Notes: generated by a model not told the origin, from the sequence alone. A DNA stretch of 64,000 nucleotides from Acidobacteriota bacterium (GCA_019347945.1 JAHWKK010000002.1:157316-221315); one strand, 5' to 3'; counted from the first letter of the stretch, positions 1,538 through 63,572 are shown. Numbers and translations are program-made.

Positions 1538-1611
1538 CTTCACTCTTCTTTTCACTCTTCACTCTTCACTCTTCACTCTTCTCTTCCTCTTCACTCGTCT
1601 TCAGCAGTCTC
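1538..1611. repeat. One-armed CT-rich heptamer array (CACTCTT / TCTCTTC variants, about 9 units)
   Basis: Directly visible tandem 7-mers sit between the convergent kdsA and recD2 genes. The array encodes the recD2 C-terminal tail and its stop. Confidence 0.85.
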
Positions 1612-3752
1612 TGGAGACGTGTCCATCGCCTGTTCGAAACCCGTCTCGAGATCGCCCGCCGCAAAGCTTCCTTTTGTCCGACGAGAACGACGAGCCGCTT
1701 CCCGCGAGTCACCGCGGTATAGATCAGATTTCTCTGAAGCATCACGTAATGCTGCATGGACAGCGGGACGATCACGGCCGGGTACTCCGAGCCCTGGGAC
1801 TTGTGAATCGTCGAGGCGTAGGCGAGCACGAGCCGGTCGATCTCGTCGAAACCATAACGGACGCTCCGGCCCTCGAACTCGGCGACCAGTTCCTCCTCCT
1901 CCTCGTCGATCCGGCGGATCACGCCGATGTCTCCATTGAAGACTTCCTTGTCGTAATCGTTCTCGGTCTGCATGATCTTGTCGCCGGCGGTGTACCTCGA
2001 GCCATATCGCTCGATTCCTTCTTTTCGGGACCGCTCGTTGAGCGAGCGCTGCAGTACCGAATTGAGCGCCTCGACCCCCGAACCGCCCCGATTCATCGGA
2101 GTGAGCACCTGAATTTCGCGCAGCGGATCGAGACCGAATCTGCGTGGAATCCGATCGCTTACGAGGCGCCTGACCATATCGGCGATCGCCTCCGGCTCAG
2201 TCTCGACGAAAAAGAAGTCGCTGGCGTCTGAATCCGCCGTGTCGAATTGCGGCATGCGGCCCCGGTTGATCTCGTGAGCGCCGACGATGATGCTGCTCGT
2301 CTCCTTCTGCCGGAAGATCTCGGTGAGGCGCACAGCGGGAACTCTTCCCGATTCGATCACGTCTTCCAGAACTTTGCCGGGACCCACCGAGGGGAGCTGA
2401 TCGACGTCGCCGACCAGCAGCAGCGCGGCGTGAGACGGGAGCGCTCTCACGAGCGAGTCCATCAGCGGCACGTCGACCATCGAGACCTCGTCGACGACGA
2501 GCAGATCGGCTTCGATCGGCCGGGTCTCGTTGCGCGTGAACTTTCCGGTTCTCGGGTTGATCTCGAGCAGCCGATGAATCGTCCTTGCCGAGAATCCCGT
2601 GCTGTCGGCCAGACGCCGGGCGGCCCGACCGGTCGGCGCGGCAAGCGCCACGTCGACCGCCTTCGCCGTGAGAATCCGGAGGATCGAATTGACGAGAGTC
2701 GTCTTGCCGACCCCGGGCCCGCCCGTGATCACAGCAACGCGCGACGCGAGAACCAGCGTGATCGCCTGGCGCTGCGAGGGAGAGAGGACAATCGAATTCT
2801 GTCGTTCGACCCATCCCATTGCAGCCTCGGCGTCGATATCCGGCCACGGCCGGCTCGAAGCCCCGGCCAGAGACGTGAGTGTTCCCGCGATCCGCTCCTC
2901 CGCGCGGTAGAGCCACGGAAGATAGATCATCGTTCCGTCCTCCAACGCCTCCTGCGCGAGATGGTTCCCGCCGAGCTCCATCTCCAGAGCCTCGGTCACC
3001 CTCGTCGGCTCGATCTCGAGCAGACTCACCGTCTTTTCGACCAGATCCTCCCGGGGAAGACCGCAATGACCCTGCGACATCGCCTCGGACAGGACATGGG
3101 TCAGGCCCGCTCTGGCCCTGAAGATCGAGCTCCGCTCGAAACCGAGACTCAGTGCAATCGCGTCGGCGCTCCTGAATCCGATCCCTCGAACATCGTCCGC
3201 GAGGCGGTATGGGTTGTTCTTGATCTCGGCGACGGCGTTTGCACCGTACTGATTCCAGATCCTTCGGATTCTCGCGGGTCCGACGCCATGTTCCTGAAGG
3301 AAGAGCATCAGGTCGCGAAGTCCTCTCGCTTCCTTCCAGCTCTTTGCGATCAAGCCGGCGCGTTTCCGTCCGATCCCCACGACCTGGGTCAGGCGTGCCG
3401 GATCCTCGTCGATCACCTCGAGGGTCGATTCGCCGAACCGCTGGACGATGAGCTTCGCAGTCGATGGACCGACTCCCTTCAGCAGCCCCGAGGCGAGAAG
3501 GCGCTCGATTCCGGAGCGCGTGGTCGGAACCCGGATCGAGACCGATTCCGCCTGAAACTGGACGCCATGTTTCGAATCGGTCCGCCACTCACCGCTCGCT
3601 TCGACCGTCTCACCCGGTGAGATGGGGGGGAGGTTCCCGACGATGGTCACGCGACTCGAACGGGCTCCGAGCGATCTCGCCTGGAGAACGGAGAATCCGG
3701 AGTCCTCCCCGTAGAAGGTCACCCGTTCGATCACAGCCGAGAGCTTCTCCAT
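1566..3752 (-). CDS. recD2: SF1B RecD2-type ATP-dependent DNA helicase
   Basis: 728 aa with Walker A GGPGVGKTT, Walker B LLVVDEVSMVD, and HhH-like N-terminal and C-terminal SH3-like regions typical of RecD2. Confidence 0.9.
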   Translation of the reverse strand: MEKLSAVIERVTFYGEDSGFSVLQARSLGARSSRVTIVGNLPPISPGETVEASGEWRTDSKHGVQFQAESVSIRVPTTRSGIERLLASGLLKGVGPSTAKLIVQRFGESTLEVIDEDPARLTQVVGIGRKRAGLIAKSWKEARGLRDLMLFLQEHGVGPARIRRIWNQYGANAVAEIKNNPYRLADDVRGIGFRSADAIALSLGFERSSIFRARAGLTHVLSEAMSQGHCGLPREDLVEKTVSLLEIEPTRVTEALEMELGGNHLAQEALEDGTMIYLPWLYRAEERIAGTLTSLAGASSRPWPDIDAEAAMGWVERQNSIVLSPSQRQAITLVLASRVAVITGGPGVGKTTLVNSILRILTAKAVDVALAAPTGRAARRLADSTGFSARTIHRLLEINPRTGKFTRNETRPIEADLLVVDEVSMVDVPLMDSLVRALPSHAALLLVGDVDQLPSVGPGKVLEDVIESGRVPAVRLTEIFRQKETSSIIVGAHEINRGRMPQFDTADSDASDFFFVETEPEAIADMVRRLVSDRIPRRFGLDPLREIQVLTPMNRGGSGVEALNSVLQRSLNERSRKEGIERYGSRYTAGDKIMQTENDYDKEVFNGDIGVIRRIDEEEEELVAEFEGRSVRYGFDEIDRLVLAYASTIHKSQGSEYPAVIVPLSMQHYVMLQRNLIYTAVTRGKRLVVLVGQKEALRRAISRRVSNRRWTRLQRLLKTSEEEEKSEE

Positions 3753-3822
3753 TCGCGGCTCAGTGTAGGAAAACGTGGGGCAGAGGCGCCACTACGGCGC
3801 CTCTTTTGCAGCCGCGCCCCTC

Positions 3823-6027: not shown

Positions 6028-6085
6028 GCAGGATTTCAGGAATCAGGATTCAGGCGAACAAAAAAAACCGTGCTCTTGGCAACTC

Positions 6086-6150
6086 GGTGGCCGGTGGCCG
6101 GTTGCCGGTTGCCGGTTGCCGGTTGCCGGTTGCCGGTTGCCGGTTGCCGG
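6086..6150. repeat. Heptamer array, left arm: (GGTGGCC)2(GGTTGCC)7
   Basis: Nine perfect-period 7-mers counted directly, reverse-complementary to the array at 6413-6508. Confidence 0.95.
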
Positions 6151-6259: not shown

Positions 6260-6357
6260 AAGCCGCCGAAGGCGGCGACAGTTCTTAGCCCCCGGCTTCA
6301 GCCGGGGGGCAGAATCTTTCCCAAATTGAGTATCGAGCCCGCTTCAGCGGGCGACAG
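6260..6357. repeat. Three-hairpin GC-rich module (copy 1 of 2)
   Basis: GCCGCCGAAGGCGGCG, AGCCCCCGGCTTCAGCCGGGGGGC and GAGCCCGCTTCAGCGGGCGAC occur in the same order and spacing as at 16398-16494. Confidence 0.85.
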
Positions 6358-6412: not shown

Positions 6413-6508
6413 GGCAACTGGCAACCGGCAACTGGCAACCGGAAACCGGAAACTGGCAACTGGCAACCGGCTACCGGCTACCGGCTACCCGGCTACCCGG
6501 CTACCGGT
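6413..6508. repeat. Heptamer array, right arm: GGCAACY / GGAAACY / GGCTACC units (about 13)
   Basis: Tandem 7-mers (two 8-mer slips) complementary to 6086-6150. The array ends 2 nt before the stop of the M24 peptidase gene. Confidence 0.95.
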
Positions 6509-9244: not shown

Positions 9245-9290
9245 TCACTCTTAACTCTTCACTCTTCTCTTCACTCTTCTCTTCACCCCT
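9245..9290. repeat. One-armed CT-rich heptamer array (CACTCTT family)
   Basis: TCACTCTTAACTCTTCACTCTTCTCTTCACTCTTCTCTTCAC, same unit family and orientation as 1538-1611 and 27431-27459. It overlaps the purK stop region. Confidence 0.8.
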
Positions 9291-12436: not shown

Positions 12437-12527
12437 GATTAGGGATTAGGGATTAGGGATCAGGGATCAGGGATCAGGGATCAGGGATCAGGGATCAGGG
12501 ATCAGGGATCAGGGATCAGGGATCAGG
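12437..12527. repeat. Heptamer array, left arm: (GATTAGG)3(GATCAGG)10
   Basis: 13 exact 7-mers counted directly, complementary to 12881-12945 with the same outer-to-inner order of unit variants. Confidence 0.95.
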
Positions 12528-12590
12528 GCGATCGCCTGAACCCGACGTAGGGGCATGTAGACAACGACGTGGGCAGTCCGGAATCCCTTC

Positions 12591-12862
12591 CCGCGATTCA
12601 CGAGCCCCCGCCCAGATCCTTCGCCCGTGCTTCGCCGGTCTCCCATGAAACGACCACGAAATTGTTGGACTTCGACCCTCTTGCAGTGCTTCGCTTGGGC
12701 TGATGTCCCAACCTGCGAGGTCCTTCGCCTGCCCGCCCGACCGCCCGCTCAGGATGACGTTGGTTTGAGTACGCGAGTTCGGTTGTTTCCGCACTCACGG
12801 GTGTCATTTCCGATCACCGTCGCAAGGCGCCGATCACTTGCTCAGGATGACGAGTGTTCGAT
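12591..12862 (-). repeat. Conserved ~270-nt intergenic core element, copy A (inverted relative to copies B and C)
   Basis: The reverse complement aligns with 15859-16115 at roughly 85-90% identity. It contains two CGTCATCCTGAGC boxes and GGGTCGAAGTCCAAC. Confidence 0.9.
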
Positions 12863-12880
12863 ATCGCGAAATCTCTCTAC

Positions 12881-12945
12881 CCTGATCCCTGATCCCTGAT
12901 CCCTGCTTTTCTCCCTGATCCCTAATCCCTAATCCCTAATCCCTG
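12881..12945. repeat. Heptamer array, right arm: (CCTGATC)3 ... CCTGATC (CCTAATC)3
   Basis: Reverse complement of the left arm. It overlaps the last codons and the TAG stop of the M14 peptidase gene. Confidence 0.95.
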
Positions 12946-15772
12946 CATCCCAGTTCAGCAGCGCGTTGTAGACGAACCGGAAATCGGAGTGATTGAGATA
13001 GCGATGCAGCGGGTTGAAGTTGAAGAGCACCACTCTCCCCTTTCCGACGGGCATGTCGATGATCGCGGGCTTGCCGTCGAGCGCATCCCCCTCGAGGCCT
13101 CCCGACAGCACGAGCGGCTTCTTCTCTTCCTCGTCTTCTTCCTCCTCCGTTTCCGCCTCCTCCGCCTCGGAGTCCTCCTCGGCCGGTTCCATTCCGAAGT
13201 CGGACTCTTCGGTGGTTCCGAGGGAGGCCGAAATCTCGAAATAGTCGGTCGCCGGCTCGACCTCCTTCGTGCCGAACTGCATGACCACCAGATCCCGGTC
13301 CCTGTCGGCCACGTCGAATACGGGTCCGTTCCCACGGAAGACGGACGGAAACTCCTCGTAGCCATAGACGATCGGGCTGGGGGCAAGCACCTTCGCCTGG
13401 ATCTCCGACCCGGGCGTCCTTCCGATATCACCGGTACGTTCGGCCCGCCTGGCGATCCCGCTGTCGACGACCAGCGTTCCACCGTTGGAGAGCGCGACGA
13501 CGACTCCTCCTCCGTCGACGAACGACTGGAGGTTCGCGAGGCCGCTGAATGCCATCCCACGCGAAATGTCCTGCGATGGGTCCGGAATCCCGTGAGAGGG
13601 ATACTCGGGGGTTCTCGTGTACGCGAGCGGAGCGAGCTTCGTGTCGATTCCGTGGATCATCCGCGACAGATCCCCGCCGAGGTCCGGCACCAGAATCACG
13701 TCGAACCGTCGCCCGAGATTTCCGGCGCGAACGTGATCGGGATTGATCAGCGTGTACGGGATCCGCTCTCGATCGAAGAGATACCGCACCCAGCCCGTGT
13801 CCTGAGTCGACCAGTTGTGGAGCACCGCGATGCGAGGAAGCGAGATTCGATGCGACGCGACATCCGGCTTCGAGTCGACACCGACGAAGGTGAGTCCGAG
13901 CTTTTCGGCAGCCGCCGAAGCTTTCGCGGCGCTCGTCCAGATCATCAGACTCCCCGCGGGGTAGTCCGTTTCGTCGAGATCGAATCCCTCCTCCGCCACT
14001 TCGATTCGCTCGTCTTTCAGTTCGAGCGCGAGATTCATGATCGCGTTCTGTCCGCTGTCCCTCACGAGGTAAATGCGACCACTTCCGATCACTTCGCCCC
14101 GCGGCACGACGTCCTGCTCGACCGGGGACATCGCCGCCGAAAGAATCGAGTCGTCGTCGATCCGGGTGGCATCGACACCGTAGAGCAGCGGCCAGGTCCA
14201 TGCGATGTCGTCGTAAGGAGGGTTCGGCTCGTCAGCCGGGAACTCCTGCTTCTGAAGAAAATTCACTGCTGCGTTGCGATGGGGCTGATCGAGCCGGACG
14301 ACCCAGTCACCCGCTTCGAACGTCTCGTCTCCCGATTCGGTCTCGGCGTCGAGCGTGTGAACTTCGATCCGATGGACGCGAAGCTGGTTGATCAGATACG
14401 CGGCCCGGCCGGAATCTCTCTGCTCGCGAGGGATGATCCAGGCATGAGGCGCCTCGCTTTTTCCTCGAGAGATCGCCCGATCCGCCTTGACCCAGTAGTT
14501 CCTGAGGAGCTCGTCGCTCCGGGTCGCCGCCTGATCGAGCGCGGCCAGAACTCCCGCCTGCATGTAATTCGTATTGTTTCTCAGCGACCACCGAACCTTC
14601 TCGTCGGGTGGCCAGGGACGGTACCACTGTCGCTCAGTCACACTCTTGCCAACGAACTTCACGTCCTCGAGCTCTCTTTCGAACGTCCCGGCGAGCGAAT
14701 TGCCGAACGTCTCGTAGAAGCGGCCGATCGCATTGTGATTGTTCGCGACCGAGAAGAGATATCCCGGCCACCATCCGTCCCAGAATCCCCAGACCCAGAC
14801 GCCGGGCAGCCCCATCGCCTGCAGCTCCGAGGTTTCGTTGTATGCGAACTGAGTCCACTCGTTGACCGTGAGCGGATCGATCGCCTCACTGTACGGCCCG
14901 TGACCGGTCGAGATGTAGAGCAGCGGCAGCGATTCGTGAAGATCGTGGAACACCTGCGGGTGATGGCGCCACCACGCAGCGTTGATCGCGCGCGTCAGGG
15001 CGAGCGTGAGCTGCATCCCGTCGCGGTTGTTGTCGTGAAACACGTAGTGACCCCAGTAGGGAGGCGAACCGACTCGGCGCAGATCATCGAAAGGAAGATT
15101 CTTCCCTCGCAGGTGTCGGTAGTACCAGTCGACGATTCGGTCCCGCCCGTCCGGTTCGGCCACCGGCGTGATCATGACGACGACGTTGTCCCGGATGTTG
15201 CGGATGTTTTCCTTTTCGCTGACGGCAAGGCGGTAGGCGAGCTCCATCAGCATCTCTGGGCTGCCAGTCTCGGTCGAATGGAGACCGCCGGTCAGGTAGT
15301 AGAACGGTTTGCCCTCCCGAATCAGCGCCTCGGCTTCCGCACGCGAAGTCGTGCGCGGATCGGCCAGAGCAGCCGTGATCCCGCTCAGCCGGTCGAGCCG
15401 AGCCAGGTTTTCCTCCGAGGAGATGATGGCGAGGATCAGGTCACGACCCTCCTCGGTGCGTCCGATCGTCTCGACTCGAACGCGGGGGCTCTCCGATCCG
15501 AGCCGGTTGAAATAACCGTGAATCTCCGCCACGCGGGTCAGCTCGTTCGGCGTTCCCGAGAGCCGGCCCAGAGCGTCCATTGGAGACGCCACGGTGGCCG
15601 ATTCCGGAACGTAGGCAACGGTCTCCGGGAGGTACTTCGGATCTGTCGTGTAACGGGCGATCGCCTCGATACTCCCCGGCTCCGCGGTGTCGGGGGCCGG
15701 ATCGACACCCAGAAGAGGGGTGGACAGCAGCATCGCGGCCAGAGCGAGCGCGGCAGATCTCGTGGTTGTCAT
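12929..15772 (-). CDS. M14-family zinc carboxypeptidase-like protein, secreted, with a large C-terminal extension
   Basis: The Met at 15772 is preceded by GGAGG and followed by a signal peptide. LHSTETGSPE (HxxE zinc site) is present, plus an acidic EEDSEAEEAETEEEEDEEEKK insert. Confidence 0.8.
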   Translation of the reverse strand: MTTTRSAALALAAMLLSTPLLGVDPAPDTAEPGSIEAIARYTTDPKYLPETVAYVPESATVASPMDALGRLSGTPNELTRVAEIHGYFNRLGSESPRVRVETIGRTEEGRDLILAIISSEENLARLDRLSGITAALADPRTTSRAEAEALIREGKPFYYLTGGLHSTETGSPEMLMELAYRLAVSEKENIRNIRDNVVVMITPVAEPDGRDRIVDWYYRHLRGKNLPFDDLRRVGSPPYWGHYVFHDNNRDGMQLTLALTRAINAAWWRHHPQVFHDLHESLPLLYISTGHGPYSEAIDPLTVNEWTQFAYNETSELQAMGLPGVWVWGFWDGWWPGYLFSVANNHNAIGRFYETFGNSLAGTFERELEDVKFVGKSVTERQWYRPWPPDEKVRWSLRNNTNYMQAGVLAALDQAATRSDELLRNYWVKADRAISRGKSEAPHAWIIPREQRDSGRAAYLINQLRVHRIEVHTLDAETESGDETFEAGDWVVRLDQPHRNAAVNFLQKQEFPADEPNPPYDDIAWTWPLLYGVDATRIDDDSILSAAMSPVEQDVVPRGEVIGSGRIYLVRDSGQNAIMNLALELKDERIEVAEEGFDLDETDYPAGSLMIWTSAAKASAAAEKLGLTFVGVDSKPDVASHRISLPRIAVLHNWSTQDTGWVRYLFDRERIPYTLINPDHVRAGNLGRRFDVILVPDLGGDLSRMIHGIDTKLAPLAYTRTPEYPSHGIPDPSQDISRGMAFSGLANLQSFVDGGGVVVALSNGGTLVVDSGIARRAERTGDIGRTPGSEIQAKVLAPSPIVYGYEEFPSVFRGNGPVFDVADRDRDLVVMQFGTKEVEPATDYFEISASLGTTEESDFGMEPAEEDSEAEEAETEEEEDEEEKKPLVLSGGLEGDALDGKPAIIDMPVGKGRVVLFNFNPLHRYLNHSDFRFVYNALLNWDAGIRD

Positions 15773-15810
15773 CGGTTCGAATCCTCCGGCCGGGAAGTAT
15801 ATCGAGAGAC

Positions 15811-15840
15811 AGTTGCCGGTGGCCGGTGGCCAGTTGCCAG
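15811..15840. repeat. Heptamer array, left arm (AGTTGCC GGTGGCC GGTGGCC AGTTGCC)
   Basis: Four 7-mers of the same GGTKGCC family as at 6086 and 31627. The partner arm is at 16521-16548. Confidence 0.85.
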
Positions 15841-15858
15841 ATTGATCTCGCCACATCC

Positions 15859-16115
15859 AAACACTCGTCATCCTGAGCAAGTCACGGGCGCCGTGCGCCG
15901 GTGAAACGGAAATGACACCCGTGAGTGCAGAAACAACCGCACTCGCATACTCAAACCGACGTCATCCTGAGCGGACGGTCGGGCGGGCAGGCGAAGGACC
16001 TCGCAGGTTGGGACATCAGACCAAGCGAAGCGGCAAAGGGTCGAAGTCCAACAAATTTCATGTTGGTTTCATTAGGAGCCGCCGAAGGACGGCGAAGGAT
16101 CTTCGCGGAGGATCC
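15859..16115 (+). repeat. Conserved ~270-nt intergenic core element, copy B
   Basis: Aligns with the reverse complement of 12591-12862 and with 31830-32044. Confidence 0.9.
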
Positions 16116-16130
16116 GAGCCTTCGGCATTC

Positions 16131-16300
16131 TGTCGCCCGCTAAAGCGGGCTCCACACGATTTTGGGGAGAGCTTCTATCCCCCGGCTTGAAGCCGGGGGC
16201 TAAGACCTTTCGCCCGCTTGCGCGGGCTGACCGATGATGATGTTCTCATCGACATCAACACTCCAGGACGGTCAGCGTTCTTTCGCCCGCTGAAGCGGGC
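16131..16300. repeat. Cluster of four GC-rich hairpins (GCCCGC-loop-GCGGGC and CCCCCGGC-loop-GCCGGGGG types)
   Basis: TGTCGCCCGCTAAAGCGGGCTCC, CCCCCGGCTTGAAGCCGGGGGC, TCGCCCGCTTGCGCGGGCTGA and TTCGCCCGCTGAAGCGGGCTGA are read directly. Confidence 0.8.
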
Positions 16301-16397
16301 TGATCGGAAATGCACGTTTTCGAGCCCGCGGAGCGAGCGACAGAACGACACGCGAGGGGCAGATCGTCTCCAACTCGCTGAATAGACGAAGCCGGCC

Positions 16398-16494
16398 AAG
16401 CCGCCGAAAGGCGGCGGCAGATCTTAGCCCCCGGCTTCAGCCGGGGGATAGAGGCGACCCCTCTGAACTTCGAGCCCGCTTCAGCGGGCGACAG
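16398..16494. repeat. Three-hairpin GC-rich module (copy 2 of 2)
   Basis: The same three hairpins in the same order as 6260-6357. Confidence 0.85.
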
Positions 16495-16520
16495 AGCGAT
16501 CACGATTCCAACCATCATGT

Positions 16521-16548
16521 GAAACCGACAACCGGCAACTGGCAACCG
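16521..16548. repeat. Heptamer array, right arm (GAAACCG ACAACCG GCAACTG GCAACCG)
   Basis: Imperfect reverse complement of 15811-15840. Confidence 0.8.
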
Positions 16549-16611
16549 TCCTCCCTCCTCTTTTCAATAAAGGAATGAATTCTCAGCTCGAGGAATCTAA
16601 ACTACTCGCCG

Positions 16612-19747: not shown

Positions 19748-19823
19748 CGATCTCGAACGCCTTCTCGAAGCGAGAGGTCTTCCGGGCTGTTGCCGAAAAC
19801 CGGCGAAAGATCTCGCGGGGATC

Positions 19824-19913
19824 GGGGTCGGGTCTGAACTTGGAACTTAACACGTTGAGATCCCGCGTAGTCCGATGATCAGTGAGTTAAGTTCCAAGTT
19901 CAGACCCGACCCC
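19824..19913. repeat. Perfect 28-bp inverted repeat with a 34-nt loop between convergent genes (candidate bidirectional terminator)
   Basis: GGGGTCGGGTCTGAACTTGGAACTTAAC at 19824-19851 and its exact reverse complement at 19886-19913. The arms include two GAACTTR heptamers. Confidence 0.9.
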
Positions 19914-19919
19914 GCCTCC

Positions 19920-22242: not shown

Positions 22243-22608
22243 TCAATCGAGCTCCTTTTTGATCTTTTCGATCAGATCCGCGGTATCGAAGGGTTTGAGG
22301 ATCGCGACATCGATACCCGTTTCCGACCTCCGGGCTTCATCGACCGGATCACCACTGAGAATGATCATCGGAAGCTCGCTCCGCCTGCTCGCCCTGCGCA
22401 TTGACTCAACCAGCTCGGCCGGCGACACATCCGGCATATTGAGATCGACGATCGCCAGATCGGGATTCTCACTCCGGACCAGTTCGATGGCCTGTTTGCC
22501 GGACGAAGCAGTCACTGGAATCATCCGGTACGTCCGGAGCAAGGCCTCCATGAGTTTCAACAGGGGCTCATCGTCGTCGACAACGAGTATCGTCGGCTGG
22601 CCAGTCAT
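22243..22608 (-). CDS. Stand-alone CheY-like response-regulator receiver
   Basis: 121 aa with ILVVDDD, DLAIVDLNMPD and a conserved K region. It starts 12 nt after the ArsA-like stop. Confidence 0.88.
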   Translation of the reverse strand: MTGQPTILVVDDDEPLLKLMEALLRTYRMIPVTASSGKQAIELVRSENPDLAIVDLNMPDVSPAELVESMRRASRRSELPMIILSGDPVDEARRSETGIDVAILKPFDTADLIEKIKKELD

Positions 22609-42583: not shown

Positions 42584-42629
42584 AGCCTTCCAACTAAGCT
42601 CCACCCCTCCGTTATCGTCTGCGTCCTTC

Positions 42630-42755: not shown

Positions 42756-43076
42756 TTACGGCTGATCGACGGTGCCGGCCGGCGTCCAGGGACCGCAGCG
42801 CGCAATCCGTCCGGCGGTCCGCAGCCCGCCGACGAGCGCTCCATTCCTCCGAATCGTCTTCAGGCCGTAGAGCGAGCACGTCGGTTCGAAGCGGCAGTTG
42901 ACGCGGCCTCTGAGGCGGGGGGAGACGGCGGAGCGATATCCTTCGATGACCGTGATGGCTGCGGCCGTTGTGATCTCGCGATGCCGCGGCTGCGGCCAGT
43001 CGTGAAGGACGAGAATGAAGGCAATCGTCGCGAGCACGACCAGCGGGCGAAATCGATTCCGACCCTTAACCCCCAA
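42756..43076 (-). CDS. yidD: Membrane protein insertion efficiency factor YidD with an N-terminal TM extension
   Basis: YRSAVSPRLRGRVNCRFEPTCSLYG...RIARCGPW matches the YidD signature. The TTG start lies inside the heptamer array, so it is uncertain. Confidence 0.8.
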   Translation of the reverse strand: MGVKGRNRFRPLVVLATIAFILVLHDWPQPRHREITTAAAITVIEGYRSAVSPRLRGRVNCRFEPTCSLYGLKTIRRNGALVGGLRTAGRIARCGPWTPAGTVDQP

Positions 43077-43106
43077 CCTCGAACCTCAAGCCTCCAACCT
43101 CCAACC
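43064..43106. repeat. Heptamer array (CCTTAAC CCCCAAC CTCGAAC CTCAAGC CTCCAAC CTCCAAC)
   Basis: Six 7-mers span the yidD start and end at the stop of the upstream eRF1-like gene. Confidence 0.85.
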
Positions 43107-46808: not shown

Positions 46809-49517
46809 TCATCTCCGGCGCGCTCCCGGACGCCGCAGCGGCGGAGGAGGCTCGCCGGCGAAGAGCACCTCAACCGAATGCGTCGTCAGAACGAAAATGC
46901 GATCGCCATCGACGACGAGATCGATCGGGGACGCCGGAAACTCTGTCGACGAGTAGGCCATCCAGTCGAGCGGAGAATCGATTCTGAAAACCTCGAGACG
47001 ACCCGTCCGGCCGATGACGAAGGCACACTCCCCCGAGATCGCGAGCGTCTGTTCGTTGAGTGATCCACCGGAAGTCGGAAGCGGAACCGCGCCGATCTGC
47101 AGGAGGCTCGCATCATTCATCGCAATGGCACCTTCGGAGGTCAGCACGTAGAGCGTGCCCGACTCATGGTGAGCGATCGCGGTTGCTGACGGGTTCACTG
47201 GTGTCGACGCCATGACGACGGGTCCGGACGGATTCGAAATATCGAGCGCGAGAATGCTCCGCGGGGCGCTGGCCAGAATCCATCCTCGTTCACCCGAAAC
47301 GACTGAATCCCGAATACCACCGCCGATCTCGCCAACCTTCATCAGCTGATCGTTGAGAAGAACCGAAGCAGTGACACAGCCGGTCGAAAGACATCCCTTC
47401 GAAACCGTGACCCAGAAGAGATCACCGATCCGTCGAATGCCGAGGAAGGAACTGTCGGGCCCCTCATCGAGCTTTCGCTCCATGAACGTCGCCCCCGATG
47501 CTCCGCGGCAGGCAATCGTGCCGTCCCCGAGAAGCTCGCACCATCCATCGCGCCAGGGAGTGAGCGCGACCGCATCCCCTGCCGATGCGTGTACCCGGCC
47601 CGATGGAGCGAGCCGCTCACCGATGAAGTTGATCCTCTCGACGGTCTCCGGCTCACCGAGCAGAATGAAATCTCCCCCCGAGGCCAGCCGGTCGTAAAAG
47701 AGATTCGAACTGTCGATGATTACTTCGCCGGGCGAGCCGGCCGAAGCTGATCCGCTGATGATCGTCACCGCCTGGCTCGATATCGCTCCCGCGAAGGCGC
47801 CGGACTCCGAAGCAGAGAGGCTTTGTCCACCTCCGGAAACCTCGATCGTGCGCCGGACCTCCCCTCCGGGACCGCGGATCTCGAACCCGGAACCGTCCGC
47901 GATGACTATCTCGTCGCCGAGCCAGACGAGACTCGTCGCGAATCCCCTGCCGCGCGGAGTGACGACTTCCGAGCCCGCAACGACGTCGAGAACGCTCAGG
48001 CCTCGAAACGTCACGAGGGCGACTCTTCCGGCATCGTCGACCGCAACCCCGGACGTCGCTGCGCCTTCGATCGTGATCGACGCGGGTTGCTCGCCGTCCC
48101 GAACGAGGAAAACAACGGTAGATCCAGCCTCATTCAGGCCGGCAGCCGCGAGCACTCCGTCTCGAGCGTCGATCCAGGAGATCGGAACGCCGGCCAGATC
48201 GACCGGCGAGACGGCACCCGACTCGAACACGGCGCGAAAAACTGTTCCGTCGGAGGCGAGAATCCACGCCCCGGAATCCGCGAGCTCCGCGTCGGCCGCG
48301 CCAAACCCGATTGCGACCGAGGCGGTTTTCTCTCCGGTTTTCGCATCGATCACGAATGCTTCACTGCTTGCGGTGAGGAGCAGTGATCCCTCACGGTAGT
48401 CGCGAATCACCGGAGAGCCCGTGACGACGGTTCTCTGCACCGCGAGGCTCCCGGTCGAAGAGAGCTGCCACGCCTGGACTCCCGCGCCGGGAAAGCCGAC
48501 ATAGATTTCGTCGCTGCCGAGAGCGATCGAGCTCGGCCCGGCCGCCGGGACCGACCTGAGGAGGTAGGGCGGATGAAACGACTCGACCTCGACCGTCACG
48601 ATTCCGAGGTCCCCCGCCGCGACGTAGAGATGACGCGAATCAGCCGCGAGGCTCCCGATCCGATTCAGCGATCCCCCGCTCGCCGGAAGCCTCGTCTCCC
48701 ATGTCTTCACCGGGCGCGATGCCGACGAGACATCGTATGCCCGGAGGGTCGTATCGAGACCGGACGAGATGGCGACTCCCGGATTGAGCCTGACCCACGA
48801 GATCGAACCTTTTTCGAGCACCCCGATTCGATTCATCTGCGCCCCCGACCCGCTGAAGATCTCGGTCTGGCGCCCGTTGGAGGCAATGAGCCGCTCTCCG
48901 TCGAAATGGATTCGGCTGGTCTGCGGAAAGCTCGGAATCGAGCCGATCTTCTGGGGAAGCGACGGGATCGTCAGCGAGAACGCCTCGATGGTCGAATCGC
49001 CGTCGGCGGCATAAAGCGTTCCGTTCCGGAATGCCACCGAACTGGCGGAACCGGTCGAAGTCTCCATCAGCCGGGGAAGCAGGCCGGGCTGGGCGGCGAT
49101 CAGCTGCAGCACGCTCCGACCCGTGGTCGCAATGTAGAGGTACTCCCCCTGTTGAAGGATGTCGTTGATCTCGGCGTCGAGAAAGACGCTGTGAATCAGG
49201 TTCATGTCGGGATCGAAGAAGAAGAGCGTGGAAGAGGAGCCTACCCAGGCCCCTCCCTCGACCGCGTCGACGACACCGGTCATGCCGGCAACCGCGCGCG
49301 TGCCGACCGGGATCAGTCCCCCTCCGGTCGTCGAATACGCAGTGACTCGATAAGTCTCGGCGGCCCACAGCCGGTCGACGTGAAGATCGAGGTCGCGCAC
49401 CGTGGAGCGGAACTCGCGAGTCTCGGCGGGCGTGAGGTCGCACGCGGCTCCCGAGCTGCTGGCCGGGAAAAGAAGAACAAGAAGGAAGAGAAACGCTGCA
49501 GCCGGACGGCGGGTCAT
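46809..49517 (-). CDS. Secreted repeat protein (LVIVD / beta-propeller-like repeats)
   Basis: The Met at 49517 gives the signal peptide MTRRPAAAFLFLLVLLFPASSSGAAC. Segments such as LYVAAGDLGIVTVEV, LYAADGDSTIEAFSL and YLYIATTGRSVLQL recur. The upstream 546 codons of the 1448-aa ORF are antisense to the HD-GYP gene and were rejected. Confidence 0.6.
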   Translation of the reverse strand: MTRRPAAAFLFLLVLLFPASSSGAACDLTPAETREFRSTVRDLDLHVDRLWAAETYRVTAYSTTGGGLIPVGTRAVAGMTGVVDAVEGGAWVGSSSTLFFFDPDMNLIHSVFLDAEINDILQQGEYLYIATTGRSVLQLIAAQPGLLPRLMETSTGSASSVAFRNGTLYAADGDSTIEAFSLTIPSLPQKIGSIPSFPQTSRIHFDGERLIASNGRQTEIFSGSGAQMNRIGVLEKGSISWVRLNPGVAISSGLDTTLRAYDVSSASRPVKTWETRLPASGGSLNRIGSLAADSRHLYVAAGDLGIVTVEVESFHPPYLLRSVPAAGPSSIALGSDEIYVGFPGAGVQAWQLSSTGSLAVQRTVVTGSPVIRDYREGSLLLTASSEAFVIDAKTGEKTASVAIGFGAADAELADSGAWILASDGTVFRAVFESGAVSPVDLAGVPISWIDARDGVLAAAGLNEAGSTVVFLVRDGEQPASITIEGAATSGVAVDDAGRVALVTFRGLSVLDVVAGSEVVTPRGRGFATSLVWLGDEIVIADGSGFEIRGPGGEVRRTIEVSGGGQSLSASESGAFAGAISSQAVTIISGSASAGSPGEVIIDSSNLFYDRLASGGDFILLGEPETVERINFIGERLAPSGRVHASAGDAVALTPWRDGWCELLGDGTIACRGASGATFMERKLDEGPDSSFLGIRRIGDLFWVTVSKGCLSTGCVTASVLLNDQLMKVGEIGGGIRDSVVSGERGWILASAPRSILALDISNPSGPVVMASTPVNPSATAIAHHESGTLYVLTSEGAIAMNDASLLQIGAVPLPTSGGSLNEQTLAISGECAFVIGRTGRLEVFRIDSPLDWMAYSSTEFPASPIDLVVDGDRIFVLTTHSVEVLFAGEPPPPLRRPGARRR

Positions 49518-49604
49518 GATCGAAATTGTAAAGTATGGAGGGGGAAACGGGGTGACAGGGCCCGACCTCACGTTCGCGCGACACTTCTTATATTCTGGAA
49601 AGCG

Positions 49605-51161
49605 ATGACATCGAAGATCAGCGAGTTGAGCTCGCATCTCAAGGGTCTGCTTTACCGCTGCATGGAGTCGTTGCAGGCGACCAAAGCAGCGTTTTACATG
49701 ACCGAGGGAGGAAGTCCGTATCGGGTGGCGGCGAGCTACGGTTTCAACGCCAAGCTGGCCGAGGAACTCCCGCCGCGTCATCCGGTCGTCGAGCGCCTCC
49801 TCCTCTCGCAAAAGGCGTTTTTCGTAAATGGGGTTGCAGCCGATCCCCGGATCGCGCCGGTTCTCTTCGACGTCAACACCGATCGCATCCTCGTGGCGCC
49901 GATCTTTTTTCACGGGCAACTGCTCGGCTTTCTGGATCTCCGCGACAAGAGCGGGGGAAAGCCGTTCACGAATGCCGATCTCCAGAGCGTCATGCCGATT
50001 CTCCGCGACATCTTCGATTTTCTGTCCTCCCGCGGAGCTTTTGGCGTCAAGGTGAGCGAGACGCGGCAGCAGGTCAGCCCGGAAGCGAAGCTCATCGAGA
50101 TGGCAAAGCAGGTGGTGAGCCGCCGCATCACGAACCGCCCCGTGACGGGCGAGATGCTCAGCGAGTCGCAGATCAACACCGTCACGGTGGCACTGCAGAC
50201 GATCTTTGCGGTACCCGGGGTCATTCTCGCCGCCTTCTCCGCATTCGGTCATCTCGGCAATGTGCAGCCGGTCGTCGTCGATGGCGAACCGACCCCGGAC
50301 GCGCTCGCGAAGCTCGATCAGAAGCTCCGCGCGTGGCTGGAGAAACAGGGAGAGTCCGTTTCCGAGGCGGGTAGTCCCGCGCGGGTCACCCTGGCGCCGA
50401 CCGGCTCGGGCCGCCCGATCAACGGCGCGCGACTCGCTTCCATCCTGAGCGCGCCGGTGAAGATCGGATCGATGAAGGGCTTGGTGCTCAGCGTCGGATT
50501 CGAGCAGCCGCCCGACCGGGAGACCCAGAAGCTTCTGACGCCCTATCTCGATCAGGTCCAGGAGACGATTCGGAGCTCGATCTCGACTGACTCGGTCCGC
50601 GCGATGCGCCAGCGGGTGGCGGAAAAGCTCCTCGAACCGGACTTCGAGACCTATCCGGAGCTCGTCGAACACTCGCGTCGGGTCAGTGCGCTCGCCGAAC
50701 AGCTCGCCCATCATCACGAGCTGCCTCCCGATGAGATCGAAATGATCCGCCTCGCCGGGCTGGTCCACGACGTCGGGATGAGAAAACTCGAATATGACGA
50801 GATCTACACGAAACCGGAGTTGAGTGAAGCCGAAAAAGAGCTCGTGACGAGCCATCCTGTCGTCAGTGCCGCGCTGACGGCCGACTCGCCTCTCGGGGCC
50901 GAGATCGGCAGACTGGTTCTCTACCACCACGAGCGCGTCGACGGAACCGGCTATCCGGAAGGCCTTCGGGGAGAACAGATTCCGCGCGGGGCTCGTATCC
51001 TCGCGATCTGCGAAGCTTTCATCGCGATGACGACCTCCACGTATCAACCTGCAATGCCCGAGAGTGCCGCCCTGATTCAGCTCGAACGAAATGCCGGCTC
51101 CCAGTTCGATGCCGCGTACGCGCGCGGGCTCGCCGAAATGCTCGCCTCGCAACATCGCTGA
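49605..51161 (+). CDS. GAF-domain / HD-GYP-domain protein (putative c-di-GMP phosphodiesterase)
   Basis: N-terminal GAF-like region, C-terminal LAGLVHDVGM and HHERVDGTGYPEGL. Confidence 0.82.
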   Translation: MTSKISELSSHLKGLLYRCMESLQATKAAFYMTEGGSPYRVAASYGFNAKLAEELPPRHPVVERLLLSQKAFFVNGVAADPRIAPVLFDVNTDRILVAPIFFHGQLLGFLDLRDKSGGKPFTNADLQSVMPILRDIFDFLSSRGAFGVKVSETRQQVSPEAKLIEMAKQVVSRRITNRPVTGEMLSESQINTVTVALQTIFAVPGVILAAFSAFGHLGNVQPVVVDGEPTPDALAKLDQKLRAWLEKQGESVSEAGSPARVTLAPTGSGRPINGARLASILSAPVKIGSMKGLVLSVGFEQPPDRETQKLLTPYLDQVQETIRSSISTDSVRAMRQRVAEKLLEPDFETYPELVEHSRRVSALAEQLAHHHELPPDEIEMIRLAGLVHDVGMRKLEYDEIYTKPELSEAEKELVTSHPVVSAALTADSPLGAEIGRLVLYHHERVDGTGYPEGLRGEQIPRGARILAICEAFIAMTTSTYQPAMPESAALIQLERNAGSQFDAAYARGLAEMLASQHR

Positions 51162-59909: not shown

Positions 59910-60269
59910 TCAGTTCTGGTCTGAATTGAGCTCGTCCATGAATCTTTGAACTTCGGCGATCAAGACCGGTAGGTCGTTCTCGGCCACCGCCCAGACGATC
60001 TCGTTCCGAACAATCATGTAACCGTGAATCAACTGATTTCTGAAGTCGATGACCCGCCGAAAACCCGTAATCCTCTCACTGATTGATCGATCCACTTCTG
60101 AAGCCTGCCGGAGAGCTTCACCGATAATCTCGAACTGCCGTTCGACGCCTGAACGAAGCAGGGAGTCGTTCAGGTAATCGTCGAGAGTCTTGCCAGAAAG
60201 GAACTTCTGGATCAACTCGGCAGCGGCGATGAGATCGTACAGGTATTTCCGGAGATCACGCTGCTTCAT
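59910..60269 (-). CDS. hepT: HepT-like (DUF86) RNase toxin of a type VII toxin-antitoxin pair
   Basis: Rx4HxY motif RNQLIHGY. 119 aa from the Met at 60269. It overlaps the antitoxin gene by 14 nt. Confidence 0.82.
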   Translation of the reverse strand: MKQRDLRKYLYDLIAAAELIQKFLSGKTLDDYLNDSLLRSGVERQFEIIGEALRQASEVDRSISERITGFRRVIDFRNQLIHGYMIVRNEIVWAVAENDLPVLIAEVQRFMDELNSDQN

Positions 60270-60576
60270 AGACGAGTTGTCTCGACGCCGTGATCGAGCG
60301 GAGTAGATAGGGGTTCCGAATGGCCTCTTCCTCGACCAGATCAATCTGCCGCCCGAAAAGATCTCGCAGCGCCTCGAGCAGCCCGAAGTACTGATCAGCG
60401 TGATCTCGAGGTGCGGCCGGGGCGAACCGAACGAGGAAATCAAGATCACTCCTCGCATGATCAAAATCACTCGTCACGGCAGATCCGAATATGTACAGAC
60501 TCTCCACGCGAAACCGTTGACAGAGCTCGTGGACTGCCTGAGCGTGTTCCGCCGGTAGTAAGGTCATGAATTCCAC
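60256..60576 (-). CDS. mntA: MntA-like minimal nucleotidyltransferase antitoxin
   Basis: GSAVTSDFDHARSDLDFLV (GSx10DxD). The start is GTG at 60576 or ATG at 60567. Confidence 0.82.
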   Translation of the reverse strand: MEFMTLLPAEHAQAVHELCQRFRVESLYIFGSAVTSDFDHARSDLDFLVRFAPAAPRDHADQYFGLLEALRDLFGRQIDLVEEEAIRNPYLLRSITASRQLVYEAA

Positions 60577-61233: not shown

Positions 61234-63362
61234 ACCTGCCGAGACTGCTCGAATACCGGCGCGACCCGCGCTTCGTCATCGGAATCGCCATTCTGATTCT
61301 CGCGGCTGCCTCCTCAATCTACTACCTCATCCAGAGAGCCAACGAGCTCTCCCCCGAGGCGCTCGGCAGCCGGATGCTGCTGTTCGTACTCTGGAACATC
61401 AATCTGATTCTCATTCTCGGGATCCTCATCGTCCTCTCGCGCGTGCTGATCAAGCTGATCCTCGAGCGACAGCGGGGCATCCTCGGTTCGCGGTTCCGAA
61501 CAAAGCTCGTCGTGACGTGGGTCGCGACCACACTCGTTCCGATCGTTCTTCTCTTCGTGGTCGCCAACGATCTGTTGAGACTCTCGATCGATCGCTGGTT
61601 CTCGGTCCCGGTGGAAACGCTCGTGAGCAACAGCGCCGAGATCGCAGAAGCGTACGAGGGCGAAAGATTCAGTCACGCGACGCGCGCCGCGGAGGCGATC
61701 GCCACGCAATGGCGGGGAGACGACCCCCCTCCGCTCGACGTTCTGAGGGAAGAGAGCGACGTCGACGTCGCCGGACTCTACCAGTCGGGCCGGACGATCC
61801 GACTGATCGCCGATCCCCGGAGTCCCGTCCACGAGCTTCGGGACCCGCCGGCCAGATTCTTCGCTCAGATCGACGAAGAGGGCGTCGCCACCAAGATCGA
61901 CGTCGCACCGAGCGGAAAGTGGCTGCGCTCGGGCGTCGGCGCCGGGCCCAACCGGTACGTCGTCACCGGTGTGTTCATCCCCGCCTCGTTCGCCCGCCTC
62001 GTCGACGAGAACCTCATCGCGTACGACGAGTATCGGCAGACGGTCGCACAGAGACCGGAGCTGAAGACTTCTCAAACCTCTCTTTTTCTGACGGCCACGC
62101 TCTACATTCTCTTCGGGGCGCTATGGGCGGCGATCTACGTTTCTCGCAGAATCACGGGACCCGTTCAGGCTCTGGCGGAAGGAACCCGGACGCTCGCTCA
62201 CGGCGACTACGACCACCGGATCGAAGCGACGGCGACGGATGAGCTCGGAACGCTGGTCGACTCGTTCAACGCGATGGCCGAGCAGCTCTCGGAGCAGCGA
62301 TCGGCACTGACGCGATCCAACGAAGAGCTCCAGCTCGTCAACCGCAGACTCGACGACGAGCGCGCCTTCCTCTCGGCCGTCCAGGAGTCTCTGTCGACCG
62401 GCATCATCGCCGTCGACGACAGTCTCTCCATTCTCGGATTGAATCCCGCTGCCCTTCGCCTGCTCGCAATCGACGAGCCGTCGCCCGGAACGCACGTCTC
62501 GGATTTTCTCGACGGCGACCTCGCGCCCCTGGCCGGCTACATCACGGGACTCGACACCGAGTCGCGGCTGAAGCCGCGCGATCTCAGCCTCGTCAGAAAA
62601 GGTGAGCTCCACTATTTCGAGTTGCACGCCGCAAGGCTCGGCTCGGCCGACACGGTCAACGGATGGGTCATCGCGATCGAGGACACGACCGAGCTCGTTC
62701 AGGCGCAGAAACTGGCAGCCTGGAGCGAGGCGGCTCGTCGCATCGCGCACGAGATCAAGAATCCACTCACTCCGATCCAGCTGTCGGCCGAGCGAATCGC
62801 CCGTCATGCCGCGGACAGTCCACCCGGGCTCCAGGACGTGACCAGAGAGGGGACGCGGATCATCATCGAAGAGGTTGCGCAGCTCAAACGCCTGGTCGAC
62901 GAGTTCTCCCGCTTCGCGAGAATGCCCGCCGTCCATCTGCGGCGGTGCTCGATCCGCGACATTCTGGAGCAGGCGGCATCTCTCTACCGCGACACGCGCG
63001 ACGACATCGTCGTCCGAGTGGAAGCTCCCGAAGATCTCGAAGCGATCGTCGACCCGGAGCAGATCAAGCGCGCTGCCGTCAATCTCCTCGACAACGCGGT
63101 CGCGGCCACGGCCGAGGGGGAGATCGTCGTTCGCGCCGAAAGAAGAGATCGCGCCATCGCGATCTCGGTCGCCGATCCCGGGATCGGCGTCCCCGACGCG
63201 GACAAGGAGAAACTCTTCCTTCCGTGGTTCTCCACCAAGAAGGAAGGCACCGGACTCGGTCTCGCGATCGTCCACCGGATCGTCCACGATCACGACGGCA
63301 GGATCTCGGTGATGGACAATTCGCCGACCGGCACGATCTTCGAGATCGAGATCCCGGCGTGA
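61230..63362 (+). CDS. ntrY: NtrY-like sensor histidine kinase (TM-HAMP-PAS-HisKA-HATPase)
   Basis: ITGPVQALAEGTRTLAHGDY (HAMP), HEIKNPLTPIQLSAERI (H box), and N, G1 and G2 boxes. A GTG start at 61230 is proposed. Confidence 0.85.
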   Translation: MNLPRLLEYRRDPRFVIGIAILILAAASSIYYLIQRANELSPEALGSRMLLFVLWNINLILILGILIVLSRVLIKLILERQRGILGSRFRTKLVVTWVATTLVPIVLLFVVANDLLRLSIDRWFSVPVETLVSNSAEIAEAYEGERFSHATRAAEAIATQWRGDDPPPLDVLREESDVDVAGLYQSGRTIRLIADPRSPVHELRDPPARFFAQIDEEGVATKIDVAPSGKWLRSGVGAGPNRYVVTGVFIPASFARLVDENLIAYDEYRQTVAQRPELKTSQTSLFLTATLYILFGALWAAIYVSRRITGPVQALAEGTRTLAHGDYDHRIEATATDELGTLVDSFNAMAEQLSEQRSALTRSNEELQLVNRRLDDERAFLSAVQESLSTGIIAVDDSLSILGLNPAALRLLAIDEPSPGTHVSDFLDGDLAPLAGYITGLDTESRLKPRDLSLVRKGELHYFELHAARLGSADTVNGWVIAIEDTTELVQAQKLAAWSEAARRIAHEIKNPLTPIQLSAERIARHAADSPPGLQDVTREGTRIIIEEVAQLKRLVDEFSRFARMPAVHLRRCSIRDILEQAASLYRDTRDDIVVRVEAPEDLEAIVDPEQIKRAAVNLLDNAVAATAEGEIVVRAERRDRAIAISVADPGIGVPDADKEKLFLPWFSTKKEGTGLGLAIVHRIVHDHDGRISVMDNSPTGTIFEIEIPA

Positions 63363-63397
63363 GGTGAGGTGGAGGTTTGAGGTTTGAGGTTGGACGA
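63361..63397. repeat. GAGGTGA/GAGGTTT/GAGGTTG heptamer arm
   Basis: Starts within the ntrY stop codon. Its partner is at 63541-63572. Confidence 0.8.
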
Positions 63398-63467
63398 GGT
63401 GCAGCTCGTCACCTCGAATTGAGCCTCTGAATCATCGCGCCGCCGTCGGGCTTAAGGCTCGATGAAA

Positions 63468-63540
63468 TGGACGTCGTGGACGAAATGGACTGAATGGACA
63501 AAGTGGACGGACCTCCTCCACAACGTCCACTTCGTCCACC
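63468..63540. repeat. Nested 9-mer arrays: (TGGACNNNN)5 followed by inverted (GTCCANNNN)2
   Basis: TGGAC recurs with exact period 9 five times from 63468. GTCCAC recurs twice with period 9 at 63525-63540. Confidence 0.8.
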
Positions 63541-63572
63541 TTCCAGCCTCGACCTCGAACCTCCAGCCTCCA
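63541..63572. repeat. CCTCGAA/CCTCCAG-type heptamer arm
   Basis: TTCCAGCCTCGACCTCGAACCTCCAGCCTCC is approximately complementary to 63361-63397. Confidence 0.75.

Follow-up and report, generated by a model that had tools for sequence, protein, structure and literature searches.

Heptamer repeats occur in excess across prokaryotes, and slippage linked to the polymerase footprint, which the 7 nt would reflect, has been put forward as their cause (Rehm et al., 2015, PMC4692102; MacGregor, 2015, PMC4679880). The DNA considered here is a 64,000-nt stretch from an Acidobacteriota bacterium (GCA_019347945.1, JAHWKK010000002.1:157316-221315), referred to below as the window, in whose spacers tandem 7-mers are arranged as inverted pairs. 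In the basic element of this clade, about 3-13 tandem 7-mers form the 5' arm, which is followed by a loop and a reverse-complementary 3' arm. Judging by sequence patterns in the window and in related loci, these elements may be palindromic heptamer microsatellites that arise and persist at the DNA level and are not a conserved RNA signal, an explanation to which we give close to an even chance. The clade provides a natural experiment, with many units and with orthologous sites that display birth, loss, and coordinated change of the arms, making it testable whether long palindromes can be built up and kept by slippage and template switching. It could also lead to the cause of the G-rich 5' arm and show whether hairpins reaching from stop to start codon are neutral or enforce translational coupling.

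The Xanthomonas campestris genome contains 186 arrays of GGGAATC-type heptamers, about 90% of them intergenic, with 70 inverted convergent pairs (70-75 per genome when X. axonopodis is included); the arrays mostly have four units and lie on average 28 nt from the upstream open reading frame (ORF), and array length differs between species while the single or inverted type is preserved (Rehm et al., 2015, PMC4692102). The preliminary description of the window had regarded paired inverted heptamers as, to its author's knowledge, undescribed in a GC-rich genome, a view that this published precedent contradicts (PMC4692102). The elements of the window and its relatives resemble those of Xanthomonas in being intergenic 7-nt arrays that form convergent pairs with the G-rich arm on the 5' side (51 inverted versus 5 direct pairs here). 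They differ in that Xanthomonas has one genome-wide unit (GGGANTN), read as G-quadruplex-forming, whereas 34 units occur in 50 pairs here; in addition, units at orthologous sites change here, matched in both arms, and the loops nest other repeats. The short tandemly repeated repetitive (STRR) sequences of heterocystous cyanobacteria, as they are cited in two papers, are intergenic direct arrays of period 7 with few fixed units (PMC4692102; PMC4679880), and what the first of these says of Nostoc is that only a few inverted pairs are seen there (PMC4692102). On this account, STRR sequences share the period and the intergenic position with the elements described here and differ in host, which is acidobacterial here, and in having few fixed genome-wide units as opposed to diverse ones. 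In Geobacter metallireducens, classes of putative regulator sites are mostly paired; sites contain tandem heptamers (GGACCGG, MTYCTGA), four or five of them, and one of these classes is made up of five (Aklujkar et al., 2009, PMC2700814); these too are tandem heptamers, but they form fixed consensus families, and locus-specific units are not described for them. New with respect to the Xanthomonas, heptamer, and Geobacter papers are the many units with matched arms, the turnover of units at orthologous sites, and the nests of other repeats in the loops. No paper on such repeats in Thermoanaerobaculia was found in the literature, and a literal search for GGTTGCC arrays came back empty.

Repetitive extragenic palindromic (REP) sequences of Proteobacteria have a fixed family sequence of 20-40 nt that is mobilised by a REP-associated tyrosine transposase (RAYT). 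Like REP sequences, bacterial interspersed mosaic elements (BIMEs), and REPINs, the heptamer hairpins are extragenic, form hairpins, exist in hundreds of copies (by extrapolation, a few hundred per genome in this clade), often stand just past stop codons, and are insertion targets; unlike REP sequences and REPINs, they have stems made of tandem arrays and no fixed sequence, and the window showed no RAYT. Drosophila foldback (FB) transposons have long inverted arms of short tandem repeats and variable, cargo-bearing loops, but they are eukaryotic and much larger, with a transposase and target-site duplications, and there is no homology. Quasipalindrome correction, in which intrastrand template switching perfects imperfect inverted repeats without selection, is an established bacterial mutation mechanism, reportedly described by Ripley in 1982 and by Lovett and colleagues. 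To our knowledge it is known for point mutations at short hairpins and not for building or maintaining arrays.

The related set comprised 80 loci (1.14 Mb), all fetched around the miaB-like gene of the window (32105-33454), with genes called by a crude GC3-based caller. The relatives are all metagenome-assembled genomes (MAGs) of Thermoanaerobaculia (Acidobacteriota), with protein identities of at most 77%; judged from these gene relatives, the source organism, from soil, is probably a Thermoanaerobaculia acidobacterium. Array pairs were defined as neighbouring period-7 arrays within 1.5 kb and were counted as inverted when one unit was the reverse complement of the other with at most one mismatch. 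Seven is by far the commonest tandem period in the related set (158 arrays of at least three copies) and accounts for 14 of the 20 window arrays of at least three copies called with Tandem Repeats Finder (TRF). The paired arrangement recurs in the related genomes, where 51 pairs of neighbouring arrays are inverted, 5 direct, and 19 unrelated. Fifty independent inverted pairs use 34 distinct units, which average 48% G+C in the 5' arm; the median loop is about 26 nt and the median stem about 30 nt, and the copy numbers of the two arms differ by at most one unit in 30 of the 50. Nested hairpins are found in loci L019, L064, L065, and L066; L005 has a perfect heptamer palindrome (GGACCYT / ARGGTCC; 17318-17392) that is essentially loopless. 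When two orthologous series are set aside, 18 pairs lie in co-directional, 9 in divergent, and 5 in convergent spacers. In co-directional spacers, roughly two-thirds of the 5' arms begin no more than about 11 nt from the stop codon.

In the window, the left arm of each locus (lettered A to H in order of position) was aligned to the reverse complement of the right arm, and the score was compared with 1000 shuffles and with a column-permuted control, in which the seven positions of the unit are permuted in the same way throughout the 3' arm. TRF called period 7 at all the arrays that the preliminary description had named, and the 9-mer array claimed there is present at 63464-63509. The reading of these arrays as reverse-complementary arms is upheld to different degrees: A and B score far above the highest shuffle and are strong, C, E, F, and H are reached by none of 1000 shuffles and are moderate, G is weak, and D is strong as a hairpin but has only two units per arm. 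Minimum-free-energy folding of either strand pairs the two arms, and both strands fold equally well; z-scores are -6 to -19, with F (about -3 to -4) and G (about -1.4) as the exceptions. Variant units stand in mirrored order in the two arms; at B, TTA-type units lie outside and TCA-type units inside on both sides, and at A the outer GGTGGCC units are opposite GGCTACC units. The idea that heptamer pairs bracket most long spacers applies to all five spacers longer than 450 nt but to only 8 of the 16 spacers of at least 90 nt, and 7 of these 16 are without any heptamer array. The units are not strictly locus-specific as had been proposed: there are at least six different ones in the window alone, yet GGTTGCC is common to A, C, and E, GAGGTT to G and H, and CACTCTT to the arrays at 1538 and 9245. 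The distance between arms, previously put at 34 to about 700 nt, is corrected to 20 to about 680 nt.

Many relatives have two genes about 1 kb upstream of miaB, here geneA (ending ...AA-stop) and geneB (beginning MPFPxHIE...), and the spacer between them provides a view of the same site in different species. The genes overlap (e.g., TGATG) or lie about 0-25 nt apart in about ten species, and about nineteen more have a heptamer hairpin that occupies the gap exactly, from the stop codon to the ATG; the gap being absent or short in some species and occupied by a stop-to-ATG hairpin in others argues for an origin in place. The 3' arm ends about 0-15 nt (mostly 3-6) before the ATG or contains it. 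Units at this site include GAGTGCT, GAGTGCC, GAGTCCT, GAGTTCC, GAGCGCA, CGATGAA, GAGATGA, GGCATGA, GAGGACT, GTTCTTA, and AGTGGTC, among others, and the changes among orthologous sites form a graded series. GGCATGA is formed from the final codon and the TGA stop, and the ATG of geneB is contained in the complement of this unit, CTCATGC; within the stem, the TGA stop lies opposite the TCA of TCATG, and array-free species have TGAGTCG at the site. At about 130-235 of L069, direct 8-mer arrays (TTTGAGAC x5 and TCGTAGAC x3) replace the inverted heptamer hairpin. A proposed inversion of the loop between L046 and L067 is unconvincing, L067 beginning at a contig end.

Eight of the geneA/geneB spacers were aligned over a consensus stem of 21 pairs (three units). 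Fifteen of the 21 pairs have changed on both sides, and two-sided changes occupy 26 cells of the alignment versus 4 for one-sided changes; stem pairing is 88.6%, compared with 73.3% in shuffles (none of 500 equalled it) and 30-42% with the partners shifted by one to three columns. The earlier suggestion that arms are co-generated, or keep their complementarity while the unit changes, is borne out by these figures, and the compensatory unit changes that were to be looked for in orthologous spacers are present; differences in copy number, as slippage would produce, are visible between arms and between species. Two-sided changes of this kind without G:U intermediates are what quasipalindrome correction would yield.

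The explanation we favour would proceed as follows. Replication slippage would duplicate a local 7-mer at a gene boundary, so that units embed the flanking TGA stop or ATG context. An inverted copy would then arise by intrastrand template switching and would stay matched through the same process, by quasipalindrome correction, with the result that a new unit variant could spread within and between arms in concerted evolution. A compact hairpin would be tolerated, as it would draw stop and start codon close to each other and disturb expression little, and the loop would be the sole place in which extra DNA could lodge without being erased. In the genome of the window, the loops appear to have been filled by a repeat of about 250 nt, by Acido-Lenti-1-type hairpins, by nested arrays, and at one locus by yidD, which would have given arm separations of 260-680 nt and left arms that are now slowly decaying. 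The two-sided changes, the lack of a G:U excess described next, the folding of both strands, and the loopless palindrome of L005 together suggest that arms are templated on each other and not selected as RNA.

A functional RNA of the REP/BIME kind, whether for protection of mRNA 3' ends, as an RNase III site, for termination without a U tract, or for translational coupling, is possible though on the unlikely side. Such a role agrees with the strongly negative z-scores for arm pairing, with 5' arms near stop codons and geneA/geneB 3' arms near or containing the ATG, with TGA and the TCA of TCATG being opposite in the stem, and with one spacer keeping its hairpin in many species through compensatory changes. 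However, the wobble-compatible mismatches noted in the preliminary description are not in excess: co-directional arms show on the sense strand 12 G:U mismatches, 18 A:C mismatches, and 43 of transversion type, and one-sided changes are rare (4 versus 26). Divergent promoter spacers are occupied as readily as the 3' sides of genes, and presence or absence varies among close species, one of which has direct 8-mers instead; moreover, the arms of the window lie 260-680 nt apart. The part in transcript 3' ends or insulation that was first envisaged finds no backing, as co-directional, divergent, and convergent spacers all carry the elements and gene pairs that have a hairpin between them nearly abut or overlap in other species.

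Thymine is mildly raised after the 3' arm (3.2 versus 2.2 expected per 12 nt), which would suit an RNA function, but a T-run there is uncommon (at least six T in 12 nt for 8 of 49 arms), and a scan with a terminator consensus, which also speaks against such a function, found 7 terminators versus 8.9 expected, none of them at arms. Downstream of miaB, arms of AGTTGTT / CTAACAA occur in three relatives (L028, 11340-11540; L035, 11412-11660; L047, 10342-10550), and their loops contain a GC-rich hairpin, GGCGGCTC...GAGCCGCC, with TTTTT after it in L047, TTTT in L035, and TT in L028. The loop of L047 thus holds a canonical intrinsic terminator; those of L028 and L035 share its GC stem but have a weaker T tail. 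Because the terminator lies within the loop, in the convergent spacer of L047 each mRNA would end before the partner arm, a further point against arms that pair in RNA. The reading of the hairpins themselves as intrinsic terminators was rejected on the lack of a directly following T-run as a rule, on the divergent sites, and on the separate terminator inside the L047 loop. Integron attC sites were also considered for L028, L035, and L047 and rejected; GTTAGAC...GTCTAAC fits the patterns of the core sites but stands there in the wrong order, and the sites lie between housekeeping genes. Stop codons of any kind are not significantly enriched in the units (26 versus 22 +/- 3); TGA is found 21 times versus 9.4 expected, mostly from one orthologous series, and 11 versus 6.1 without it. 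Shine-Dalgarno cores are not enriched in 5' arms (7 versus 4.9).

Several observations weigh against a purely mutational origin and maintenance. L031, L063, and L066 share the unit GAGTGCT and the loop GTTAGAAGCGGAGC even though their flanking gene is 71-82% identical in protein and its third positions are near saturation (0.59-0.70); this conservation of loop and unit despite saturated synonymous sites argues for sequence constraint, unlike what is expected of a purely neutral element, and would fit an RNA function. A subset of hairpins has A-rich and T-rich flanks and resembles bidirectional terminators. The units share a weak pattern, RRTKNWG (3.75 bits versus 3.26 +/- 0.16 in shuffles), and unit families reappear at several sites within one genome. 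The preference for a G-rich 5' arm also counts on this side. Thirteen of the 50 pairs derive from one orthologous spacer and three from another, which makes some statistics non-independent, and key statistics were recomputed without them. The mechanism itself is drawn from patterns in sequence, and exact-protein look-ups returned contigs of run SRR15827330 only, an assembly apparently from the same sample and 100% identical.

Of the 50 pairs, 44 have the G-rich arm on the 5' side, whichever strand is read (p = 3e-8), and 28 of 34 do so once the orthologous series are left out. The preference is also seen in divergent spacers (10:1) and in units free of stop codons (19:5), which marks it as a property of the hairpin itself and not of the transcript. 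For unpaired arrays, the two orientations with respect to transcription number 19 and 12, a bias that is not significant, and many of these arrays have degenerate partners. An unrecognised, sequence-blind generator that works in 7-base steps and places the G-rich arm 5', either an enzyme system or a replication or repair trait of the clade, might also underlie the elements, as might selected devices for stop-start pairing; we regard this pair of possibilities as improbable. If the devices were real, the downstream gene would be translated only by ribosomes finishing the upstream gene, and slippage would tune the coupling.

Mobility is a further explanation to be weighed against palindromic microsatellites that arise in place. 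The hairpins could be MITEs (miniature inverted-repeat transposable elements) of foldback type, or REPIN-like, with a transposase elsewhere in the genome and a preference for gene ends, which we consider a poor prospect. Units do recur at non-orthologous sites, GGTTGCC at three, GAGGTT at two, and CACTCTT at two in the window, GAATGTT at two in L015, and AGTTGTT at two in L035, and the adjacency to stop codons could reflect a target preference. However, hairpins that share a unit at different sites have unrelated loops, with no conserved internal sequence among same-unit copies and no conserved termini beyond the degenerate units, and no target-site duplication is visible flanking the arms. 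Units embed the stop or start codon of the flanking gene itself, and orthologous unit changes are graded; the conserved family sequence typical of REP sequences and REPINs is likewise missing, in that units and loops vary between copies. A Pfam scan of 49 window genes across the 64 kb shows no transposase or RAYT.

Perfect (GGTTGCC)x4 arrays were also found in more than 120 metagenome contigs (L084-L203), where adjacent copies are 30 inverted versus 2 direct and arrays reach 41-71 copies (L111, L151). This spread, mostly in inverted form, might seem to favour mobility, but the contigs range in GC from 0.34 to 0.75 and have nothing else in common with the window, so that recurrent origin fits better than transfer; the scan returned no close relative of the window. 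The GGTTGCC unit recurs in apparently unrelated bacteria.

Binding sites at the DNA level, either for a dimeric nucleoid or regulatory protein on convergent arrays or as a G-quadruplex tract, are very unlikely to account for the elements. Three heptamers do equal two helical turns, the (GGGATCA)n register of locus B has GGG tracts and resembles GGGAATC, there is the weak consensus among units, and the G-first geometry is like that of Xanthomonas. Against this stand the 34 units in 50 pairs, which offer no common recognition sequence, the absence of G-tracts from most units (locus B alone has GGG in the window), and the variable presence of the element at orthologous sites.

That the arrays are artefacts of assembly, collapsed or chimeric repeats, can be given hardly any weight. 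Short-read contigs do break at the arrays and at the hairpin module in loop C, and Logan contigs (L081, L082) end in arm B (12470), in the Acido-Lenti-1 element of loop C (16423), and in arm D (19913). However, the independent Logan contigs of SRR15827330 match the window at 100% identity; one spans all of locus G, and another reproduces arm B in its outer units. The same architecture is repeated in dozens of MAGs that stem from separate projects, a complete chromosome (L013, OY970284.1) among them. The arrays, for which an artefact had been named as a risk, are real and hard for short reads and were not created by the assembler; in abundant soil Acidobacteriota, they break up assemblies made from short reads.

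The loops of the window contain other repeats, and the heptamer hairpins mark sites at which small mobile repeats of other kinds accumulate. Every copy of a repeated module in the window sits between arms and never between an arm and a gene. A module of about 100 nt is present in three copies in loops A and C (6260-6357, 16398-16494, and 16130-16214), the two copies in C being mutually inverted; the copy in loop A (minus strand) combines an Acido-Lenti-1 double hairpin (6261-6308) with a GCCCGCTTCAGCGGGC hairpin. Acido-Lenti-1 (RF01687) scores above its gathering score of 37 at 16399-16447 (41.1 bits) and at 6261-6308 (40.5 bits), both on the minus strand. The composite of Acido-Lenti-1 and GCCCGCTTCAGCGGGC behaves as a small dispersed repeat, and similar copies occur in L003 and L034. 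Module X, of about 250 nt with two CGTCATCCTGAGC boxes, occupies loop B at 12602-12858 on the minus strand and recurs in loop C at 15857-16114; the two copies are in opposite orientation and 89% identical over 248 aligned positions (15860-16102), or 88% in a longer alignment (12602-12858 with 15860-16114). Partial, rearranged matches to module X at 31714-31994 in loop E bring the total to three copies in the 64 kb, and no BLAST match to it was found in the 80 related loci. Loop C as a whole (15857-16494) thus consists of module X and two of the modules of about 100 nt, with Acido-Lenti-1 in one of them. Short GTCATCCTGAGCG...GCGAAGGATC elements are frequent in the spacers of relatives (L003, L012, L079, L080, and the loop of L018).

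In relatives the loops are filled as well, by a GTCATCCTGAG element (L018, 10531-10674), by nested arrays, or by a terminator. The proposal that the hairpins serve as landing pads for inserts accordingly survives in a weak sense only, namely that all module copies of the window lie between arms and that the loops of relatives are filled too. The "giant hairpins" of the preliminary description are real in form but not typical: the window version is an ordinary hairpin with a filled loop, and its three clearest loci hold three of the four longest loops in the entire set. Complementarity of the arms drops slightly with loop length (rho -0.27, p = 0.046), from 0.92-0.93 for loops shorter than 50 nt to 0.87 for loops of at least 150 nt, a drop that fits arms drifting once they are far apart.

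Locus A has a 5' arm of two GGTGGCC and seven GGTTGCC units (6085-6150; TRF period 7, 9.4 copies, 98% matches) and a 3' arm of about 13 copies of GGCAACY, GGAAACY, and GGCTACC (6413-6507), which stops 2 nt before the stop codon of a minus-strand M24 peptidase gene. The arms pair over 64 nt with 89% complementarity, and the alignment score is 46.5 versus 12.5 for the highest shuffle. At locus B, a 5' arm of three GATTAGG followed by ten GATCAGG units (12437-12531; TRF 13.1 copies, 98% matches) lies 22 nt upstream of the terB start codon on the minus strand, and the 3' arm (12871-12951), with three CCCTGAT units, an interruption, one more CCCTGAT, and three CCCTAAT units, overlaps the stop codon of an M14 peptidase gene; the score is 47, again versus 12.5 for the highest shuffle.

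Among the loci of moderate strength, the scores of C, E, F, and H are reached by 7-60 of 1000 column-permuted arrays. Locus C occupies a divergent spacer, with a 5' arm of about 4.4 copies of AGTTGCC / GGTGGCC (15806-15842) and a 3' arm of about 3.7 copies of GACAACC, GGCAACT, and GGCAACC (16519-16552), and scores 13. At locus E (score 17.5, 83% complementary), the 5' arm on the plus strand has about 7.6 copies of CCGGTGG (31624-31682) and the 3' arm 4.3 copies of CCGGCAA (32068-32102); the latter begins 4 nt past the stop codon of the miaB-like gene, read on the minus strand. Locus F (score 15.5) has one arm of GAGCGGC / GAGCGGGC (33495-33520), which is intergenic once the miaB start is set to 33454, and another of GCTCGTC, GCTCACC, and GCTCGCC (33712-33745), 11 nt from the stop codon of an E1 dehydrogenase gene. 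The 5' arm of locus H, GAGGTGA / GAGGTTT (63362-63398), starts at the stop codon of a histidine kinase gene, and its 3' arm consists of CCAGCCT / CGAACCT (63535-63575); an inner 9-mer pair is nested between them at 63464-63509 and about 63510-63540, the score is 13.5, and the fold z-score is about -7.5.

Locus D, between convergent genes, has 36-nt arms (19823-19858 and 19879-19914) around a 20-nt loop; with a perfect 29-bp stem (score 29), two GAACTTR units per arm, and fold z-scores of -11 and -13, it is a hairpin and not an array. Locus G combines a weak, degenerate, GAGG-rich arm (42545-42575) just after the stop codon of an M23 peptidase gene with two arrays, CTCCAAC x4 (42725-42752) directly downstream of yidD on the minus strand and AACCTCC x5.6 (43068-43106) between the stop codon of a baeRF-family gene and the start of yidD. 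The arm scores 10.5 with the array at 42725 (8 of 1000 shuffles and 103 of 1000 column-permuted arrays reach this) and 13.5 with that at 43068 (1 of 1000 and 67 of 1000). The supposed spacer at G encloses yidD itself (42756-43037, minus strand, PF01809), and the 5' end of yidD is duplicated together with the array upstream of it (42609-42748 and 42950-43087, 83% identical, offset 341 nt); the array at 43068-43106 is a same-strand duplicate of that at 42725-42752 as a result of this segmental duplication with its 341-nt offset.

Two CACTCTT arrays of the window are unpaired. One, of nine copies at 1538-1596, runs over the stop codon of recD2 on the minus strand, and a search for an inverted partner found none; the other, of the CACTCTT family at 9245-9286, overlaps the stop codon of a minus-strand purK-like gene.

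The repeats also cause gene starts and ends to be miscalled, as with the start of miaB, yidD within a supposed spacer, and ORFs that run into arrays. The longest ORF of the miaB-like gene starts at 33607, and conservation in relatives starts with MEETVE..., whose ATG is at 33454; the first 51 codons of this ORF, which cross a heptamer arm, are probably spurious. Elsewhere in the window, a minus-strand ORF of 1448 aa (46809-51155) with coding-like GC3 has no Pfam match at E <= 1e-5, the gas-vesicle genes gvpG and gvpL/F adjoin genes for an ArsA-type ATPase and a response regulator on the minus strand at 22243-25581, and a minus-strand gene at 59910-60470 encodes a HepT-like ribonuclease domain, the toxin of HepT/MNT pairs.

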